From assembly GCF_000011805.1 (NCBI RefSeq), contig NC_006841.2: a stretch of 32,000 nt of DNA, one strand, 5' to 3'. How positions within the stretch are numbered: position 1 is the first letter of the stretch; every line of letters starts with the position of its first letter. A model generated the notes under the pieces. It was not told the origin of the DNA, did no database searches, and worked only from the letters and a program-made list of their open reading frames with translations. Positions 1 to 7,432 of the stretch are shown here, one piece after another. The position numbers were made by a program, and so were the translations under genes. The stretch comes from Aliivibrio fischeri ES114. GTDB lineage: Bacteria > Pseudomonadota > Gammaproteobacteria > Enterobacterales > Vibrionaceae.

Positions 1-549
1 CCAGAGTTTTGTTTGAAACTTTTCAGGATCTATTGTACTTACCATTTCATCTTTACAAATGACTAAGTGATGTGGAAGTACCGAGTCTTGAGCGTCTAAA
101 GGAATAGCTCGATCTAACTGAATGCGAGTAATATTGGTTAATACAACGCCATACCCATAAGGAAGACACAAGTTACCTTTATATTTCCCATCTTGATTTA
201 TAAGTAAGTTATCTCGTTTTAGTTTATCTATGACTTGATAACTACATTGACGTACTTGCTCAATAGGATTACTTGTTGTTTCAATGCCTTTTGATGTTAG
301 TAATTCGACACGAGACGCATCTATATTTCTGATAGTATCAAGTTTCCAATCTTTTACTTCAAGAAATAGTAACCCACGTGCGGGATGTAAGATAATGAAA
401 TCAGGGTAACGTCGTTGGCGTCCAACAGGGATGTCATACCAACATATGTAATCATCCTCTAATAAGTTTTCAACACGTTGCGCGAAACGTTTTTCTCCTG
501 CCGTCATTTTAGATAAACAGGTATTTAATGTTGGTATTAGTTCAGCCAT
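1..549 (-). CDS. NERD-domain protein, N-terminal 183 codons (gene continues beyond the window start; relatives are usually NERD + SF1 helicase fusions)
   Basis: Hand translation of the minus strand from ATG at 549 gives 183 codons with no stop: MAELIPTLNTCLSKMTAGEKRFAQRVENLLEDDYICWYDIPVGRQRRYPDFIILHPARGLLFLEVKDWKLDTI... The YPDF...LEVKDWK core is the PD-(D/E)xK-like NERD signature. It is absent from the ORF track because the window edge truncates it. Confidence 0.6.
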   Translation of the reverse strand, partial: MAELIPTLNTCLSKMTAGEKRFAQRVENLLEDDYICWYDIPVGRQRRYPDFIILHPARGLLFLEVKDWKLDTIRNIDASRVELLTSKGIETTSNPIEQVRQCSYQVIDKLKRDNLLINQDGKYKGNLCLPYGYGVVLTNITRIQLDRAIPLDAQDSVLPHHLVICKDEMVSTIDPEKFQTKLW

Positions 550-819
550 TTATTTGTACTACTAAGGCAATAATCTTACAATTATAAGCTTTTGTCCTAT
601 TTTAAATCGTGATCTATAACAAAATTATATAACGACTTGATAAGTATGGATTTATTTAGTTTAGATTAACTTGTTTGTTAAAGATTAAGCTATGGAATAC
701 ATTAATGGTATTTTTATAAAATCGAAATACTAAAAATGTCACTTATATCTCGTTTTTTATCATGCATCTAGATAAGATACTGATTATTAAAGTTTGATTT
801 GTATTTTTTAGGATGAAGT

Positions 820-1947
820 ATGTCTGTTGAGTATTATGTAGACAAGTTCCGTAACTTAAACATGAATAGTAATAAAGGGAGAAAGAGCCCACATAAAGTA
901 TGCATGTTACTTTCTGTTATGGACTTAATACAAGCGGGCTATATTTATAAAAATAGATTTCAACTTGATGCTACGTTAAAAGAACGTTTTACTCATTTCT
1001 TTAATGAGCGTAGGCATGAACAAGACCGAGATACTCCAGAGAATCCTTTTTTTCACCTTAAAAGTGAAGGTTTTTGGCATTTAGCTTATCAAGATGGTAT
1101 TGATGCTTCTCTTGTTAAAGGATACTCCGCTAAAGCTATTAATTATGCTTATTTGGATGATGAGCTATTTGATTACTTAAAAAGTATAATTGTTGTTAAT
1201 GATTTAAAAGATGCATTAGTTGAAAATTTATCTGATTTAACTGACCTTTACACTCAATGGTTGATTGATGTTGGGAAGTCAGAAAAAACTGCTAAAAATT
1301 ACTCTCAAGCGATTAGAGGTTCTATTTCAAATTGGATGATACAAGAGAATATTTTGGAAGAACCATTAACAAAAGTGAAGTCTTTTCGTGAGTTTTGTCG
1401 GCTATCTGAAACTGCTCGCTCTCTTGAGAAGTTTAAAAAGTTTAATGCAAACGGAAATCATATGTATAGCGCTGCATTAAATTCATATCAGCGCTTTTTA
1501 GCAGATTTATCGCAAGTTGATGTAAAAGCAGATATTCAAGAAATTTTTGAGGATAACAAACTTACCCAAACGGAAAAAACCATTATGGTTAATACTCGTA
1601 TGGGACAGGGGACATTTAGAAAGCAACTAATAGAAATGTGGAAAGGCTGCTCTGTTACTGGATATAAGAACACTCAGATGCTTGTTGCTTCTCATATAAA
1701 ACCATGGCGTGAAGCTAATAATACAGAACGTTTAGATAAATATAATGGACTACTGTTACTTGCTAATTTAGATAAAGCATTCGATCTTGGTTTTATCTCT
1801 TTTCAAAATTCAGGAAAATTAATGATATCGAGTCAATTGGAGGCTCCAGAGGTATTAGGGCTTAGAGATGATATGATCTTTAATGTTCACCGTGAGCATA
1901 AAAAGTATTTAGACCATCATCGTAAAATTTTATTCAAAGGTTTTTAG
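820..1947 (+). CDS. HNH endonuclease with a ScoMcrA-type sulfur-binding-domain-like N-terminus (candidate modification-dependent type IV restriction enzyme)
   Basis: 375-aa ORF with AGGA 7 nt upstream of the ATG. The N-terminus (SPHKVCMLLSVMDLIQAG...NPFFHLKSEGFWHL) matches the pattern I recall for SBD-like domains of phosphorothioate-dependent REases. The C-terminus (GQGTFRKQLIEMWKGCSVTG...ASHIKPW...NGLLLLANLDKAFDLGFISF) matches HNH_2 / COG3183-type nucleases. Confidence 0.6.
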   Translation: MSVEYYVDKFRNLNMNSNKGRKSPHKVCMLLSVMDLIQAGYIYKNRFQLDATLKERFTHFFNERRHEQDRDTPENPFFHLKSEGFWHLAYQDGIDASLVKGYSAKAINYAYLDDELFDYLKSIIVVNDLKDALVENLSDLTDLYTQWLIDVGKSEKTAKNYSQAIRGSISNWMIQENILEEPLTKVKSFREFCRLSETARSLEKFKKFNANGNHMYSAALNSYQRFLADLSQVDVKADIQEIFEDNKLTQTEKTIMVNTRMGQGTFRKQLIEMWKGCSVTGYKNTQMLVASHIKPWREANNTERLDKYNGLLLLANLDKAFDLGFISFQNSGKLMISSQLEAPEVLGLRDDMIFNVHREHKKYLDHHRKILFKGF

Positions 1948-2520
1948 TTTTATTAGAATTGCATTTAACCATTTTTCATTGGCACGATTAGGGCGCAAAT
2001 CTTCAGTTATCCATGTTTTTTTAATTGATAATTGAGACTTTTTAAGTAGGTCATTAAGTAAGGTTTCATTTAGATTTGTGAAACTACGACCATTACGCTC
2101 TACTTCACAGTCACCGTATTTGAATGAACAATAAAAAAGACCTTCTTGCTTTAAGAAATGAGCTAAATGATGAAATGTTTTTTCTAATTCATTCATAGGG
2201 ACATGAAGTAAAGATGCACATGCCCAAATCGCATCTTGGCTGGCTTTTTTTGTATTAAAATCCAAAAATGTAGAGTGTAAAATCGGATGCTGTGTGTATT
2301 GTTGTGCAAGAGTGATTAATTCTTCACTAGCATCGAAAGCCGTAACACGATAGTTTTTATTTAAGAAATATAAAGTATCTCGTCCTGAACCACATCCAAC
2401 ATCAAGGATTTTAGCGTGTGTAGGTAGGTAAGGAAGGAGTTCTTTGTAGAGAGATTCCACATTTACCTCAACTGTACCATTAAAAAAAGTAAGTGCATTT
2501 TCGTTATAATAATTAGTCAT
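1930..2520 (-). CDS. class I SAM-dependent methyltransferase (TehB-like small-molecule type)
   Basis: 196-aa ORF with SAM-binding motif I (ILDVGCGSGRDTLYF) and an acidic post-I residue (FDAS). It has no (D/N/S)PP(Y/F/W) motif and no C5-MTase PC/ENV motifs. Its 3' end overlaps the convergent HNH gene by 18 nt. Confidence 0.8.
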   Translation of the reverse strand: MTNYYNENALTFFNGTVEVNVESLYKELLPYLPTHAKILDVGCGSGRDTLYFLNKNYRVTAFDASEELITLAQQYTQHPILHSTFLDFNTKKASQDAIWACASLLHVPMNELEKTFHHLAHFLKQEGLFYCSFKYGDCEVERNGRSFTNLNETLLNDLLKKSQLSIKKTWITEDLRPNRANEKWLNAILIKLKTFE

Positions 2521-2571
2521 AGCTTTATTGTAAAAAAATAAGTTAGCACTAATTTATCATTATAAGTCCCA

Positions 2572-2674
2572 TCATTTCAGTCTTTTCTTGCTAATTGTCA
2601 CTGGTGTTTTTACCGTTAGTCTCAACTCACCATTGACGCATTCACGGGTGGGAATGGCGTGTCTATCTATATCG
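2572..2674 (-). pseudogene. orphan 3' fragment (33 codons + stop) of a diverged allele of the DUF900 hydrolase gene
   Basis: The minus-strand translation is DIDRHAIPTRECVNGELRLTVKTPVTISKKRLK*. The intact hydrolase C-terminus is DIDRHAIPTRECVNGELRLTVKTPVTINKKRLKG*. No upstream coding sequence or start codon remains; the fragment begins 12 nt after the stop of the 179-aa gene. Confidence 0.75.
2575..2674. repeat. 100-nt direct repeat, copy A (91/100 identical to 3416..3515, no indels)
   Basis: Hand alignment of tttcagtcttttcttgctaattgtcactggtg...ggaatggcgtgtctatctatatcg against copy B. Similarity stops abruptly at both ends. Confidence 0.9.
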
Positions 2675-2686
2675 TTTTTCGTTGCA

Positions 2687-3226
2687 CTAAGAGTACCATG
2701 CTGTAATTGGAGTGAAGGTAACGCCTTTTAGATTAAGTTTTGATAATAGATGAACAATGGATTCATGTACCACGGTTACCGGACTATGACCTATTTTAAA
2801 TATAAGTCTGTCGTTGAGTGCGATAGTATGCAATTCATTAGAAAGCGATAAGCGGCGAATATTTTTTATATTCCCTCTTTTAATGGTAGCTTTTGATTTA
2901 TTTTCATCGATAAGGGATATGAAATTGATCACTTTTAATAAATAAAAATCGTTGTGAAGGCTTTCAATCTTAGCGGGTATAAGTTGAATATAGGGTAAGT
3001 TTAACGATGATAATACATGGTATATCTTCTGGTTAATGAGTATTTTGGGTGAGTAATAAACATCAGGCACTAAAAAAGAGTCGCCAATGAGTGTTATTTT
3101 ATATTGGAGTTTACTATCAGGGTGAACTAATTTTCTTTTTATTTCAATAGTTTCTGTGTATTCATTTGTCGCACTAAGTAAGCCGAATTGGCAATCTTCA
3201 CACCAAACATAATATTCGTTATTCAT
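2687..3226 (-). CDS. 179-aa cytoplasmic protein, Imm11/DUF1629-like (candidate immunity protein)
   Basis: The ORF lies directly downstream of the hydrolase on the same strand. It shows the pattern I recall for Imm11 (PF07791): N-terminal EYYVW, FYLLKVINFISLIDENKS, RLIFKI, and C-terminal LKGVTFTPI. It has no signal peptide or lipobox. The family call is unverified. Confidence 0.55.
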   Translation of the reverse strand: MNNEYYVWCEDCQFGLLSATNEYTETIEIKRKLVHPDSKLQYKITLIGDSFLVPDVYYSPKILINQKIYHVLSSLNLPYIQLIPAKIESLHNDFYLLKVINFISLIDENKSKATIKRGNIKNIRRLSLSNELHTIALNDRLIFKIGHSPVTVVHESIVHLLSKLNLKGVTFTPITAWYS

Positions 3227-3409
3227 TATTTCTTTACTCTAATACTTCGATGGTGAACGTTTAATAGGTATGTCTTTATTTTCATTACGTTATGCTTAGA
3301 GTATGTCATGAATTATGGGGTGGTGTTAAGTTAATTTAATGGCGGCTTTTTATATGTGGTAATGCTCTACGCAGATAAATCACCGATTTTGTTTTCTTAT
3401 GCTTTGGTG

Positions 3410-4444
3410 TTAGCCTTTCAGCCTTTTCTTATTGATTGTCACCGGTGTTTTTACCGTTAGTCTCAATTCGCCATTTACGCATTCACGGGTGGGAATGGCG
3501 TGCCTATCTATATCGCCTTTTAAGGTGTGAGCCAAATCTTCCATAAAGTGATTACAGTGAAAGTGCCAAGAGTGGCTCCAATTGCCTATGGTTTTGTTTT
3601 CTTCTGGCTCTGTAAGCAGTTTCCAGTGATCTCCGCAGTGCACGTTAACAAGGTTTGATGGTGCATCGCTAGGTAGTCCAACACGTCCACAACGAGGGAA
3701 TAACCCTGCTCGCTTAATGTTAGAAATTTTTAATGCGTTGTCATAAGGGCTTTGGTAGTTAGTAATTCGGCTTGATTGAGCAAACATAGGTGCAGATTTA
3801 TTGTCACATTGAGTTAATGACTTCTGTGCAATATCTCCACCAATAAAGCAGATTTGACTCACGTTCCAGTGAATTCGCTGCAAAATTCGATTTTTACTTG
3901 CTTGATAAAATGCTTCTCTAATCACATAAGCCCCTGTTGAGTGGCCTAGTAAATGAATATCAATATCGCATTGGTTTTCTTTCTCGTGCAGTTGATTTAT
4001 TGCTAATGGGGTTATGCCACCTGTCACCAGTTGAATCGCACTTTTGTAGGCATCCATTCTGTCTTCTAAGTAATTTAATGTGTAGTTCGCACAAGGCCAA
4101 TCAAAACTCACCACTGTTCCTGTATACCCATGTTGTTTTAGCTGTTTCTCAAGCAGTTTATGGCGTGAAACGATTTCATCTTGGGTGTTGTTATAGCCAT
4201 GAGCAAAAAACAGAATATTGCCGGTTTTATATTGAGCTAGGGGATGAGTATCTGGGTGGCGTCCCGTTGTGGCTTGGTTGGTTAATGCAGTTACCCATGC
4301 ATCTTGTGGCAGTTGATGTTGGTTTAAATCAGGGCTGGTTGCTTCATCTGGCAGCATTAGATAATGAGCTTCACCTGGTTCATTGGTGTGCTTTTCATTT
4401 GGAAAAAATCCGATGCGTTTGCGAGTGCTTAATATGAAGATCAT
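3410..4444 (-). CDS. alpha/beta hydrolase, DUF900 (PF05990)-type esterase/lipase
   Basis: Motifs: MIFILSTRKR..., ILFFAHGYNN, SFDWPCANYTLNYLEDR, and the nucleophile elbow HLLGHSTGAYV (GxSxG). I place the start at ATG 4444 because AGGGA lies 6 nt upstream. The track ORF starts at an upstream TTG (4477). Confidence 0.8.
   Translation of the reverse strand: MIFILSTRKRIGFFPNEKHTNEPGEAHYLMLPDEATSPDLNQHQLPQDAWVTALTNQATTGRHPDTHPLAQYKTGNILFFAHGYNNTQDEIVSRHKLLEKQLKQHGYTGTVVSFDWPCANYTLNYLEDRMDAYKSAIQLVTGGITPLAINQLHEKENQCDIDIHLLGHSTGAYVIREAFYQASKNRILQRIHWNVSQICFIGGDIAQKSLTQCDNKSAPMFAQSSRITNYQSPYDNALKISNIKRAGLFPRCGRVGLPSDAPSNLVNVHCGDHWKLLTEPEENKTIGNWSHSWHFHCNHFMEDLAHTLKGDIDRHAIPTRECVNGELRLTVKTPVTINKKRLKG
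3416..3515. repeat. 100-nt direct repeat, copy B (inside the 3' end of the intact hydrolase gene)
   Basis: See copy A. This copy encodes the last 33 sense codons before ...G* of the hydrolase. Confidence 0.9.
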
Positions 4445-4999: not shown

Positions 5000-5947
5000 A
5001 TGGTTAACTATTCTCTTATTGATGTCCCTTTTAATCTAAGACATACCTGCTGGTTTTGTGGCGAGCCTTCGTATGATCTTCTCTCTTTTCCTGCGTCTTC
5101 GCATCAAGTTCATCATATATTCCATCAACCAATTGAATTACCTGCCTGCAAAGAGTGTTTGTCATTTTCATCCTCTGGCGTGTTTGAGTCTATTTGGTCT
5201 TATCGAGATAAAGTAAAACATTCATTAATGAATAAGTACGCCAAGCATTTGGGTATTGGTTTGCAATGGACAAAAGAAGAACTTGAAGAGGCAGAGTTTC
5301 ATGGTGCGGTGCTTGAAGGCTTTGGAAAAAGCGCATGGCAAATGTATGAAATAGCAAAAGCACGGATTGATTATATTGGTTGGGAGCTGTGTGTTGATGG
5401 ATCTCCACTAGAAGGAGATGAGAGTTACGGATTTGAGTTTAATGGTGTGCGCTATTTAAGTGTTCAAGCGTGTATTGATCACCATGTTAAAGCTTTGTCA
5501 TTAGATAAAATATTACTAGAAACACTAGTTGAACTTGTCGGCTCTGAGCGATTTGCTTATGGATTACGTATTGCTGAGTTAAATCGTGATATCAGTAATA
5601 AAGAGCGAAATTCTATTATTGATGAGATCCAAAAGCAGGAGCAAGACAGAGTCGATATTCTAGAAGCTGCGCAATTTGAAAATGATGATGTTACCCTTCC
5701 ATTAGTTGCTGTTGTTATGTCAGAGGCGACAGCACAGCCTGAGGCGATAGAGTGGGCGATTGAACATCAATGTGCAGATTTAGAAACCTTGATTAATATG
5801 GAAGATGCCTTTTTTGATGCGTTTGAACATTTGGGTGGGCCTACAGCGTTTGCTCTGTTCGATGGATTACAGTGGTACTTAACGGCAAGACAAGATCCTA
5901 AATGGCGTGAAGAAAATGATCCAAATGATGAGTTTTGGAACGAATAA
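5000..5947 (+). CDS. hypothetical 315-aa protein with an N-terminal CxxC...CxxC zinc-ribbon-like motif and an acidic C-terminal half
   Basis: Long ORF followed by a strong terminator. It contains HTCWFCGEP...LPACKEC. I recognise no family. Confidence 0.65.
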   Translation: MVNYSLIDVPFNLRHTCWFCGEPSYDLLSFPASSHQVHHIFHQPIELPACKECLSFSSSGVFESIWSYRDKVKHSLMNKYAKHLGIGLQWTKEELEEAEFHGAVLEGFGKSAWQMYEIAKARIDYIGWELCVDGSPLEGDESYGFEFNGVRYLSVQACIDHHVKALSLDKILLETLVELVGSERFAYGLRIAELNRDISNKERNSIIDEIQKQEQDRVDILEAAQFENDDVTLPLVAVVMSEATAQPEAIEWAIEHQCADLETLINMEDAFFDAFEHLGGPTAFALFDGLQWYLTARQDPKWREENDPNDEFWNE

Positions 5948-6016: not shown

Positions 6017-6032
6017 TATTTATTACAATAGA

Positions 6033-7432
6033 TTACGCCCAGAAAATGGCAGCGAAACCGGTTAAGACAACAACACAAACAAGGTTTAAGTAAATACCTA
6101 CACGCATCATTTCAGATTGTTTAATATGACCAGAGCCGAAGACAATGGCATTAGGTGGTGTCGCGACTGGTAGCATGAAGGCACAAGAAGCAGAGATTGC
6201 TATCATGGCTGAAAGCACAACAGGTGAAATACCAAGAGCTTCTGCCACACTTGCAAATACTGGGATAAGCAGAGCAGCACTTGCTGTGTTACTTGCAAAC
6301 TCAGTTAAGAACACCACAAAAGCTGCAACGGTTAATATGGTAAATAATATGCCAGCTTGAGAAAGAATATCGCTCAGGCTATGCGCTAGGAAGGTACTGG
6401 TTCCGGTTGCTTTTAGGATGTTACTTAAACAGATACCACCGCCAAATAACAGTAATACACCCCAGTCAGTGGTTTTTTCAATGTCTTTCCATTGCACCAC
6501 TCGTGCAAACCCAACCAGAATGATCGCCATTAGCGCCACAATAGTATCGAATTTTGAGAACCCGCCTAGCATGGCATTAATTGGTTTGCTGAAAATCCAT
6601 AAGGTAACCGTAAGAGCAAAAATCATGAGAGTAACGACTTTGCCTTTATCCCATGCAATTGGTTCTTGGTTTAGCTCAAAGACTTCATTTAAGTTTGGTT
6701 TTAGCATGAAGTATAAAAGTGCAACTGTGGTAGGCAGTAGAACTAAAGTAACAGGTACACCAAAGGCCATCCATTCAGTAAAACTTAAACCAACTTCAGC
6801 TGCGGCAATGGCATTTGGTGGACTACCAACGATGGTTGAGATCCCGCCAATGCTGGCACAGTAAGCTATACCCAGTAAAACGAACACATAGGTATTGTGG
6901 CCTGATTTTGAATTTACTTTGTTTAATACCCCTAAAACTAACGGAAGCATCATGGCAGTAGTGGCAGTGTTACTTATCCACATTGATAGTCCTGCTGTTA
7001 CACCAAATAGCATGTAAATAGCGGTACTCATTTTACCATTTGCTAAAACCAATACTTTATCTGCAATGGCTTTGTCTAGCTCTTGTCTGTGAAGTGCGGC
7101 TGCCAGAGCAAAACCACCAAGAAAGAGGAAAATGATCGGGTTTGCGAAGTTACTGAGTGCTTTTCCGGTGTCAAAATCCCAAAACCAATGGCAAACATAG
7201 GAACTAAAAGGGCGGTGATACTAACGTGCATAGCTTCGGTGAGCCATAAAATAGCAACAAACGTTAAGATACTTAACCCAAGTACAACGTCCCTTTCAAA
7301 TGGAAGGAAGTTATACAGTAAAGCAAAAAGAACGATATCAGCGAGGATGATAAGGCTATTTTTATTTAAGAACCATTCCCTAGTATTTGTGGGTAACGGT
7401 AGATTTTCATTTTTGAGCATGACGAACTCCAT
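6033..7432 (-). pseudogene. DASS/SLC13-family anion:sodium symporter, split by a 1-nt frameshift (or sequencing error)
   Basis: The 118-aa ORF (7432->7076) and 339-aa ORF (7052->6033) are the N- and C-parts of one transporter. Hand translation around 7150-7175 shows ...[15 protein letters not shown] in one frame. [44 protein letters not shown]... follows in the next frame. The junction is at the T4 run 7161..7164. Confidence 0.8.

Follow-up and report, generated by a model that had tools for sequence, protein, structure and literature searches.

The stretch analysed here, 32,000 nucleotides of chromosome II of Aliivibrio fischeri ES114 (NC_006841.2, assembly GCF_000011805.1; "the window" below), carries on its minus strand a gene for a 344-aa DUF900 alpha/beta hydrolase (VF_A0139, AAW87209; 3410-4444), which is conserved in Aliivibrio and borders a variable island. 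After a gap of 183 nt the same strand carries its neighbour, an open reading frame (ORF) of 179 codons (VF_A0138, AAW87208; 3226 to 2687). Next come a short duplicate of the hydrolase 3' end with a stop codon of its own (2572-2679), 51 nt of intergenic DNA (2521-2571) and the ATG, at 2520, of a methyltransferase gene. A preliminary description of this DNA took the arrangement for a toxin, its immunity gene and an orphan toxin tail. The comparisons presented here favour another reading: VF_A0138 is probably an orphan immunity gene of the Imm11 family, inserted beside an unrelated conserved hydrolase in a minority of A. fischeri strains, and the apparent toxin tail is evidently a recombination scar, a duplicate of the native hydrolase 3' end.

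The duplicated hydrolase end and the inserted block

The two hydrolase ends form a direct repeat of 105 nt (2575-2679 and 3416-3520) that is 90% identical, far beyond chance. Copy A (3416-3520, minus strand) is the 3' end of the working hydrolase gene, whose protein finishes in ...TINKKRLKG; the final glycine and the TAA are contributed by the inserted DNA. Copy B (2572-2679, minus strand) holds 33 codons and a TGA at 2574-2572, and is non-functional. Its translation from 2673 to 2572 is DIDRHAIPTRECVNGELRLTVKTPVTISKKRLK followed by the stop. It has no start codon, and its reading frame opens 13 nt past the stop of the 179-aa gene and is out of frame with that gene. The preliminary description had recognised the 33-codon copy, the 183-nt spacer (3409-3227) and the 51 nt between the tail stop and the methyltransferase. 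It misplaced the start of the tail at 2674, after 12 nt, by one position, and its statement that the copy is in frame holds for the hydrolase frame, which is intact inside the fragment, but not for the frame of the 179-aa gene.

The protein encoded by copy B equals the C-terminus of the common 343-aa hydrolase allele (P0009), and its DNA is 97% identical to the tail in L010, a strain without the insertion. An empty site was found in A. fischeri CP092713 (L097), where the 343-aa hydrolase ends at 6032 and the same methyltransferase gene starts at 6084, 51 nt later. Both repeat copies of the window align to the one single tail of L097, from which ES114 differs by an 841-bp insertion with about 100-105 bp duplicated. 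In all strains without the insertion the native end reads CTGAAA-TGA-TGGGA, whereas the ES114-type working copy reads CTGAAA-GGC-TAA-CA..., and the homology therefore breaks exactly at the stop codon. Downstream, copy B keeps both the native TGA-TGGGA and the native 51-nt spacer, which is equally long in the empty-site strains. The AT-rich, non-coding 183-nt spacer (3227-3409, minus strand) opens the inserted block and is unmatched in the empty-site strains. GC content falls at the hydrolase stop from about 0.40-0.45 to about 0.30-0.34.

Copies A and B bear differing polymorphisms, each shared with other A. fischeri alleles, and we therefore infer recombination with another strain's DNA and not a local duplication. 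The hydrolase gene is about 98% identical to that of L010 in its 5' part and 92-95% identical in its last ~400 nt, so that the 3' end (3410-3800) looks like a mosaic of different strains. Four of the 15 listed cluster members are 344-aa alleles with tail A, and every listed 344-aa allele with an identifiable locus (ES114, ES401, L007) adjoins a gene of the VF_A0138 type. The altered tail is probably harmless, since the structural model of the hydrolase shows its last ten residues as disordered.

These junctions suggest that a block of 841 bp, made up of the 183-nt leader and the Imm11 gene, would have been inserted exactly at the hydrolase stop in ES114, ES401 and others. About 105 bp at the hydrolase 3' end would thereby have been doubled, with one copy completing the hydrolase by a trivially altered tail and the other left as a dead scar in front of the methyltransferase gene. 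The route would have been homology-anchored illegitimate recombination or single-crossover integration of DNA from another strain, not displacement of a toxin domain. The locus thus illustrates, cleanly and in nature, how DNA inserted at a stop codon can leave behind a 105-bp duplicate of the gene's end, a scar able to mimic an "orphan toxin tail". An origin as an integron cassette was considered and rejected, since direct reading of the sequence finds merely 13 nt between the stop codon of the immunity gene and the repeat.

In a phage collection the inserted block had no match. A plasmid collection yielded only a distant relative from Imm11, present in several copies on a V. campbellii replicon of 2 Mb. 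At one Vibrio campbellii locus (L103; NZ_CP050465, 1866146-1880709), five matches to the 179-aa protein at about 26% identity lie in a run of small ORFs on the same strand, which may be a multi-immunity or cassette array.

Family membership and likely role of VF_A0138

The product of VF_A0138 (2687-3226, minus strand) matches the Pfam profile Imm11 (PF07791, DUF1629) with 21.0 bits (E=2.3e-4). Its close relatives are few, eight among 5.8 billion proteins, and come from A. fischeri and Shewanella only. Several of them bear an Imm11 annotation or a pre-computed Imm11 score, PF07791 is found in homologs at 58-66% identity, and 28 of the 30 relatives in the alignment match this profile (E<=0.01). 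In a Foldseek search of the PDB with the AlphaFold2 model of the protein, the sole significant match was 6a4c (E=5e-8, probability 1.00, TMq 0.63), the solution structure of the Imm11 prototype MXAN_0049. Profile, predicted fold and the context of its paralog together assign the protein to the Imm11 family, which the preliminary description had proposed. That description was also right that there is neither a signal peptide nor a lipobox, as can be read from the N-terminus, MNNEYYVWCEDCQ, and the protein is predicted to be cytoplasmic. It had seen a novelty in this absence, which is what one would expect of an immunity protein acting against a cytoplasmic nuclease.

Documented partners of Imm11 proteins are the Tox-AHH, Tox-HNH and Tox-SHH nucleases (PMC3482391), and AHH-Imm11 pairs of Myxococcus have been validated, with cross-protection at 46% identity (PMC12077181). 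The closest paralog of VF_A0138, an A. fischeri protein of 66% identity (P0002), has such a partner: the first base of its gene is also the last base of a gene for an AHH toxin (L004, 7273-8001; Pfam AHH, 48.9 bits). In other A. fischeri strains this AHH gene belongs to a type VI secretion system (T6SS) cluster, where tssJ/K/L and a Tox-PAAR-like gene precede it. More distant relatives from Vibrio sit within arrays of PAAR-like, AHH and immunity genes. The T6SS clusters of A. fischeri (L004, 5756-12791) and of other Vibrio (L104, L105) contain tandem modules of PAAR-like gene, AHH toxin, Imm11 and a small gene; the gene after the immunity gene is a recurrent one of 163 aa, or one of 117 aa. 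The Shewanella relatives stand alone, intact and at the same conserved place on the chromosome in at least five species, with no hydrolase nearby. No DUF900 gene was called in the loci of any relatives outside this A. fischeri lineage.

Searches of the window by TBLASTN with the AHH, PAAR-like and 117-aa proteins of the T6SS cluster found nothing in or near the 183-nt spacer and no match in the 32 kb. There is therefore no decayed toxin upstream of VF_A0138, and no toxin-gene remnant was found in the spacer. The position directly downstream of a toxin with an HNH/EndoVII fold (AHH, HNH, SHH), which P0002 and the more distant relatives occupy, is not occupied by the window gene. VF_A0138 is filed here as an orphan member of Imm11 because no toxin lies upstream of it or anywhere in the 32 kb. 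With the AHH/Imm11 pairs (MXAN_0050/MXAN_0049; PF14412/PF07791) it shares the predicted fold, the sequence signal, the cytoplasmic location and a similar size. It is further tied to them by the paralog in the same species, which is translationally coupled to AHH beside a PAAR-like gene in a T6SS cluster. It differs from them in being toxin-less, in standing at the stop of an unrelated hydrolase and in having its nearest toxin-linked relative at 66% identity.

By homology, the 179-aa protein would bind and block an AHH-type nuclease effector (HNH/EndoVII fold) injected into the cytoplasm by competitors possessing T6SS2. ES114 lacks T6SS2 and is a standard T6SS2-negative strain (PMC9972734). VF_A0138 has the features of an orphan immunity gene: it is a homolog of an effector-linked immunity gene, the effector is absent, and only some strains carry it. 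A more specific proposal is that VF_A0138 is a working, acquired immunity gene, captured from a different strain by homology-anchored recombination at the stop of the hydrolase, with which T6SS2-negative squid symbionts such as ES114 resist one AHH nuclease effector of T6SS2-positive A. fischeri. We regard this as possible, with the balance tilted somewhat against it.

Several observations weigh against the orphan-immunity reading. The Imm11 score lies 1.1 bits under the gathering score of the profile (22.1 bits), and the AlphaFold2 model is mediocre (pLDDT, the predicted local distance difference test, is 63; residues 10-60 are below 50, residues 60-179 better). Among AHH toxins, none turned up whose paired immunity gene exceeds 66% identity to VF_A0138, and the proposed route of recombination is deduced from the junctions only. 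T6SS2-positive strains such as FQ-A001 kill ES114 (PMC9972734), and any protection would therefore be partial, or absent against those effector sets. Between the Imm11 alleles of ES114 (2687-3226) and L007 (10001-10540) there are five non-synonymous and no synonymous changes, too few to interpret, which could reflect relaxed constraint. Finally, the hydrolase and the 179-aa gene could be co-transcribed, with no terminator-like site separating them. Promoter and terminator scans of the locus gave nothing exceeding the shuffled background.

Some of these points would also suit a functionless hitch-hiker, a fragment of a former toxin-immunity cassette that was brought in by recombination and is now drifting. 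The five-to-zero pattern of changes, the sensitivity of ES114 to T6SS2, the absence of a cognate toxin near the gene by TBLASTN of the window and the want of a convincing promoter over shuffled background all lean this way, as does a C-terminus six residues shorter than in the relatives. Such drift is nevertheless unlikely. The ORF is full-length and intact in all carrier strains, distinct lineages included, and the orphan relatives are intact at their conserved site in at least five Shewanella species. In the comparison of VF_A0138 with its paralog, the ratio of non-synonymous to synonymous substitution rates (dN/dS) is about 0.11, with dS saturated, a long-term value that argues against drift.

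Orphan T6SS immunity genes are known from the aux clusters of V. cholerae (PMC5361080, PMC8189183) and from an immunity islet of Salmonella Typhi (PMC7400221). VF_A0138 resembles them as an immunity homolog without an effector, found in strains that face T6SS attackers of their own species and acquired by what appears to be recombination. However, the V. cholerae orphans lie inside T6SS auxiliary clusters, beside remnants of displaced effectors, while in ES114 a lone gene lies in a restriction-type island, away from any T6SS locus, and the remnant flanking it comes from a housekeeping-like hydrolase and not from an effector.

Orphan immunity genes as such are well known in Vibrio and other bacteria, but the one carried by ES114, the standard "target" strain of V. 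fischeri, is unreported; among its relatives is the immunity gene that goes with an AHH effector in the killer strains' T6SS2 cluster. According to a 2023 review, no T6SS effector of V. fischeri has been functionally characterised (PMC9972734), and for this reason the AHH/immunity pair and the orphan are ready-made candidates for testing. If VF_A0138 is working immunity, it would be the first defined effector-immunity specificity in V. fischeri and would let strain incompatibility in the light organ be approached genetically. The interest is modest and chiefly for the V. fischeri-squid field.

The hydrolase VF_A0139 and the proposed toxin-immunity pair

The assignment of VF_A0139 (3410-4444, minus strand) to DUF900, made in the preliminary description, was borne out. 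The protein matches PF05990 with 70.8 bits (E=1.6e-19; cut-off 20.5), so that a score above gathering is joined by a serine nucleophile elbow, GHSTG. In an alignment of 20 diverse homologs the GHSTG motif, D235 and an HSWH motif are invariant, and a C-terminal segment, GDIDR..IPTR..G.L.L, is also conserved. S169 (in GHSTG), D235 and H291 are the candidate catalytic residues. The family is large (631 matches at E<=1e-3) and consists of single-domain members of about 335 aa. It is spread over Vibrionaceae, Alteromonadaceae, Rhizobium, Nitrospira, Acidobacteria, Planctomycetes and others, with 41-56% identity across phyla. Within A. fischeri the hydrolase is conserved end to end and forms one cluster of 68 members at 90% identity.

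The AlphaFold2 model of the hydrolase (pLDDT 82) has an alpha/beta-hydrolase fold. A fold search returned only generic alpha/beta hydrolases (GID1, cutinases, Legionella PlaB, lpg2422) at template-modelling (TM) scores of 0.25-0.35, and no substrate can therefore be inferred. PDB sequence searches with profiles of both families, the hydrolase and the 179-aa protein, gave nothing significant, and PADLOC and NCBIfam scans of the two proteins gave no defence-system or named-family match. A literature search for VF_A0138 and VF_A0139 found no papers.

The genomic context of the hydrolase was followed through 80 species-level loci. The order symporter, 315-aa gene, hydrolase is kept across Aliivibrio, with identical neighbours in nine Aliivibrio species loci, and conservation of neighbours stops at this genus-level gene order. 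In 43 of 69 loci the gene downstream of the hydrolase is on the opposite strand. The neighbours sampled elsewhere are housekeeping genes (LysR, CorC/CNNM, carB, prolyl oligopeptidase, RecX). No relative of the 179-aa protein was found within 6 kb of the hydrolase in any of the 80 loci. The preliminary description had named a lack of co-occurrence elsewhere as the finding that would count against its pairing, and this is the finding obtained. Among the marks of a toxin, no delivery domain, no conserved downstream partner or paired small gene, and no T6SS linkage were detected. From its sequence and surroundings VF_A0139 looks like a conserved, stand-alone, single-domain cytoplasmic DUF900 serine hydrolase; our working guess is that it is a cytoplasmic esterase or lipase-type enzyme.

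In the toxin-immunity model of the preliminary description, the DUF900 hydrolase would be a lipase-like toxin, the 179-aa protein its cognate cytoplasmic immunity protein or antitoxin, and the fragment a displaced toxin tail. The two genes are indeed neighbours on one strand that no terminator-like site separates, and the 344-aa hydrolase allele travels with the immunity gene. The fold can also be toxic: a secreted, cinquedea-like archaeal alpha/beta hydrolase is bactericidal, and its homologs often carry DUF900 (bioRxiv 10.64898/2026.06.10.730825). However, the 179-aa gene is missing beside the hydrolase in most A. fischeri alleles, in eight further loci from Aliivibrio and in all 80 of the species loci. 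The hydrolase lacks a delivery domain, and its C-terminus is uniformly conserved instead of variable. The supposed displaced tail is 90% identical to the working one and equals the native allele, and it is followed by a methyltransferase gene instead of an immunity gene. In addition, the known partners of Imm11 are nucleases (PMC3482391, PMC12077181), the paralog is coupled to AHH, and a 183-nt gap and the break in GC content separate the hydrolase from the 179-aa gene. The model is thus largely refuted by the lack of co-occurrence and appears highly improbable. Also remote is the idea that the Imm11 protein was re-purposed to regulate the hydrolase, which is far less likely than a working, acquired immunity gene.

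Two groups of known systems invite comparison with the hydrolase locus. Like the Tle1-5/Tli lipase pairs, it places a small gene beside one for an alpha/beta hydrolase whose nucleophile elbow has the GxSxG pattern. Unlike these, VF_A0139 is not linked to VgrG, Hcp or PAAR, its neighbour lacks a signal peptide and is not targeted to the periplasm, and members of the hydrolase family in different phyla lie among housekeeping genes and have no downstream gene paired with them. The orphan C-terminal toxin/immunity modules of contact-dependent inhibition (CDI) and Rhs loci likewise place, after an immunity-family gene, the 3' fragment of a gene that ends in a stop of its own. In ES114, however, the fragment is nearly identical to the same conserved C-terminus and does not encode a diverged toxin domain, it is not followed by an immunity gene, and the full-length hydrolase has no delivery or repeat region. 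Hence the features of a polymorphic toxin locus, namely an N-terminal delivery region with a variable C-terminal toxin, a different orphan domain with its own immunity gene, and co-occurrence of toxin and immunity gene, were not found here. There is no sign of a new family of DUF900 toxins or of a new cytoplasmic lipase immunity, and a false lead is thereby removed.

The variable island and other genes of the window

Across Aliivibrio, the DNA past the hydrolase stop varies while the gene order upstream is constant. The hydrolase stop marks where a hypervariable defence-type island of low GC begins on chromosome II. In L010, L013 and L011 other islands follow directly after the stop. The DNA at this site behaves as a swap site for restriction-type islands; the boundary falls some 5 nt beyond the stop in a comparison of window 1-3409 with L010 7033-12000, L011 and L097. 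The island type of the window comprises a methyltransferase (MT196), an HNH protein and NERD/UvrD. The alternative type has a 566-aa methyltransferase with HNH_4 (MT566) and a PLD/DEAD/DUF3427 helicase. MT196, a 196-aa S-adenosylmethionine-dependent methyltransferase (1930-2520, minus strand), is the first gene of the variable island in the window and is of interest here as context only. The HNH protein is a 375-aa HNH_2 endonuclease (HNH375; 820-1947, plus strand), whose N-terminus resembles a phosphorothioate-DNA-binding domain.

Tox-HNH is among the partners of Imm11 (PMC3482391), and HNH375 lies 740 bp from the 179-aa gene in the same low-GC island. The 179-aa protein might on these grounds be the immunity protein or antitoxin of HNH375, in keeping with the pairing of Imm11 with HNH-fold toxins. 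However, orthologs of HNH375 with 83-85% identity are present in six other Aliivibrio species loci (L011/L017, L014, L015, L018, L019, L020) with no relative of the 179-aa gene. The gene at the same position in A. fischeri L097, which has the length and Pfam domains of HNH375, also stands without one. The orthologs and the L097 counterpart are all accompanied by MT196 or MT566, and the N-terminal resemblance makes HNH375 look like a modification-dependent restriction enzyme. HNH375 is thus widespread without the immunity gene and was rejected as its partner; a pairing of the two is very improbable.

Rfam scans found no RNA family in the whole window. Upstream of the hydrolase and divergent from it lies the gene of a 315-aa protein (5000-5947, plus strand) with CxxC...CxxC motifs near its N-terminus. 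Pfam, NCBIfam and PADLOC returned no match for this protein, and among the hydrolase loci fetched its gene is confined to Aliivibrio. Further upstream is a symporter gene of the DASS (Na+/sulfate) type (6033-7432, minus strand), which elsewhere is intact and encodes 462 aa. In ES114 it is split into ORFs of 118 and 339 aa by a one-base deletion of a T around 7177, relative to two other A. fischeri strains; the gene may be a true pseudogene there, or the sequence may contain an error.

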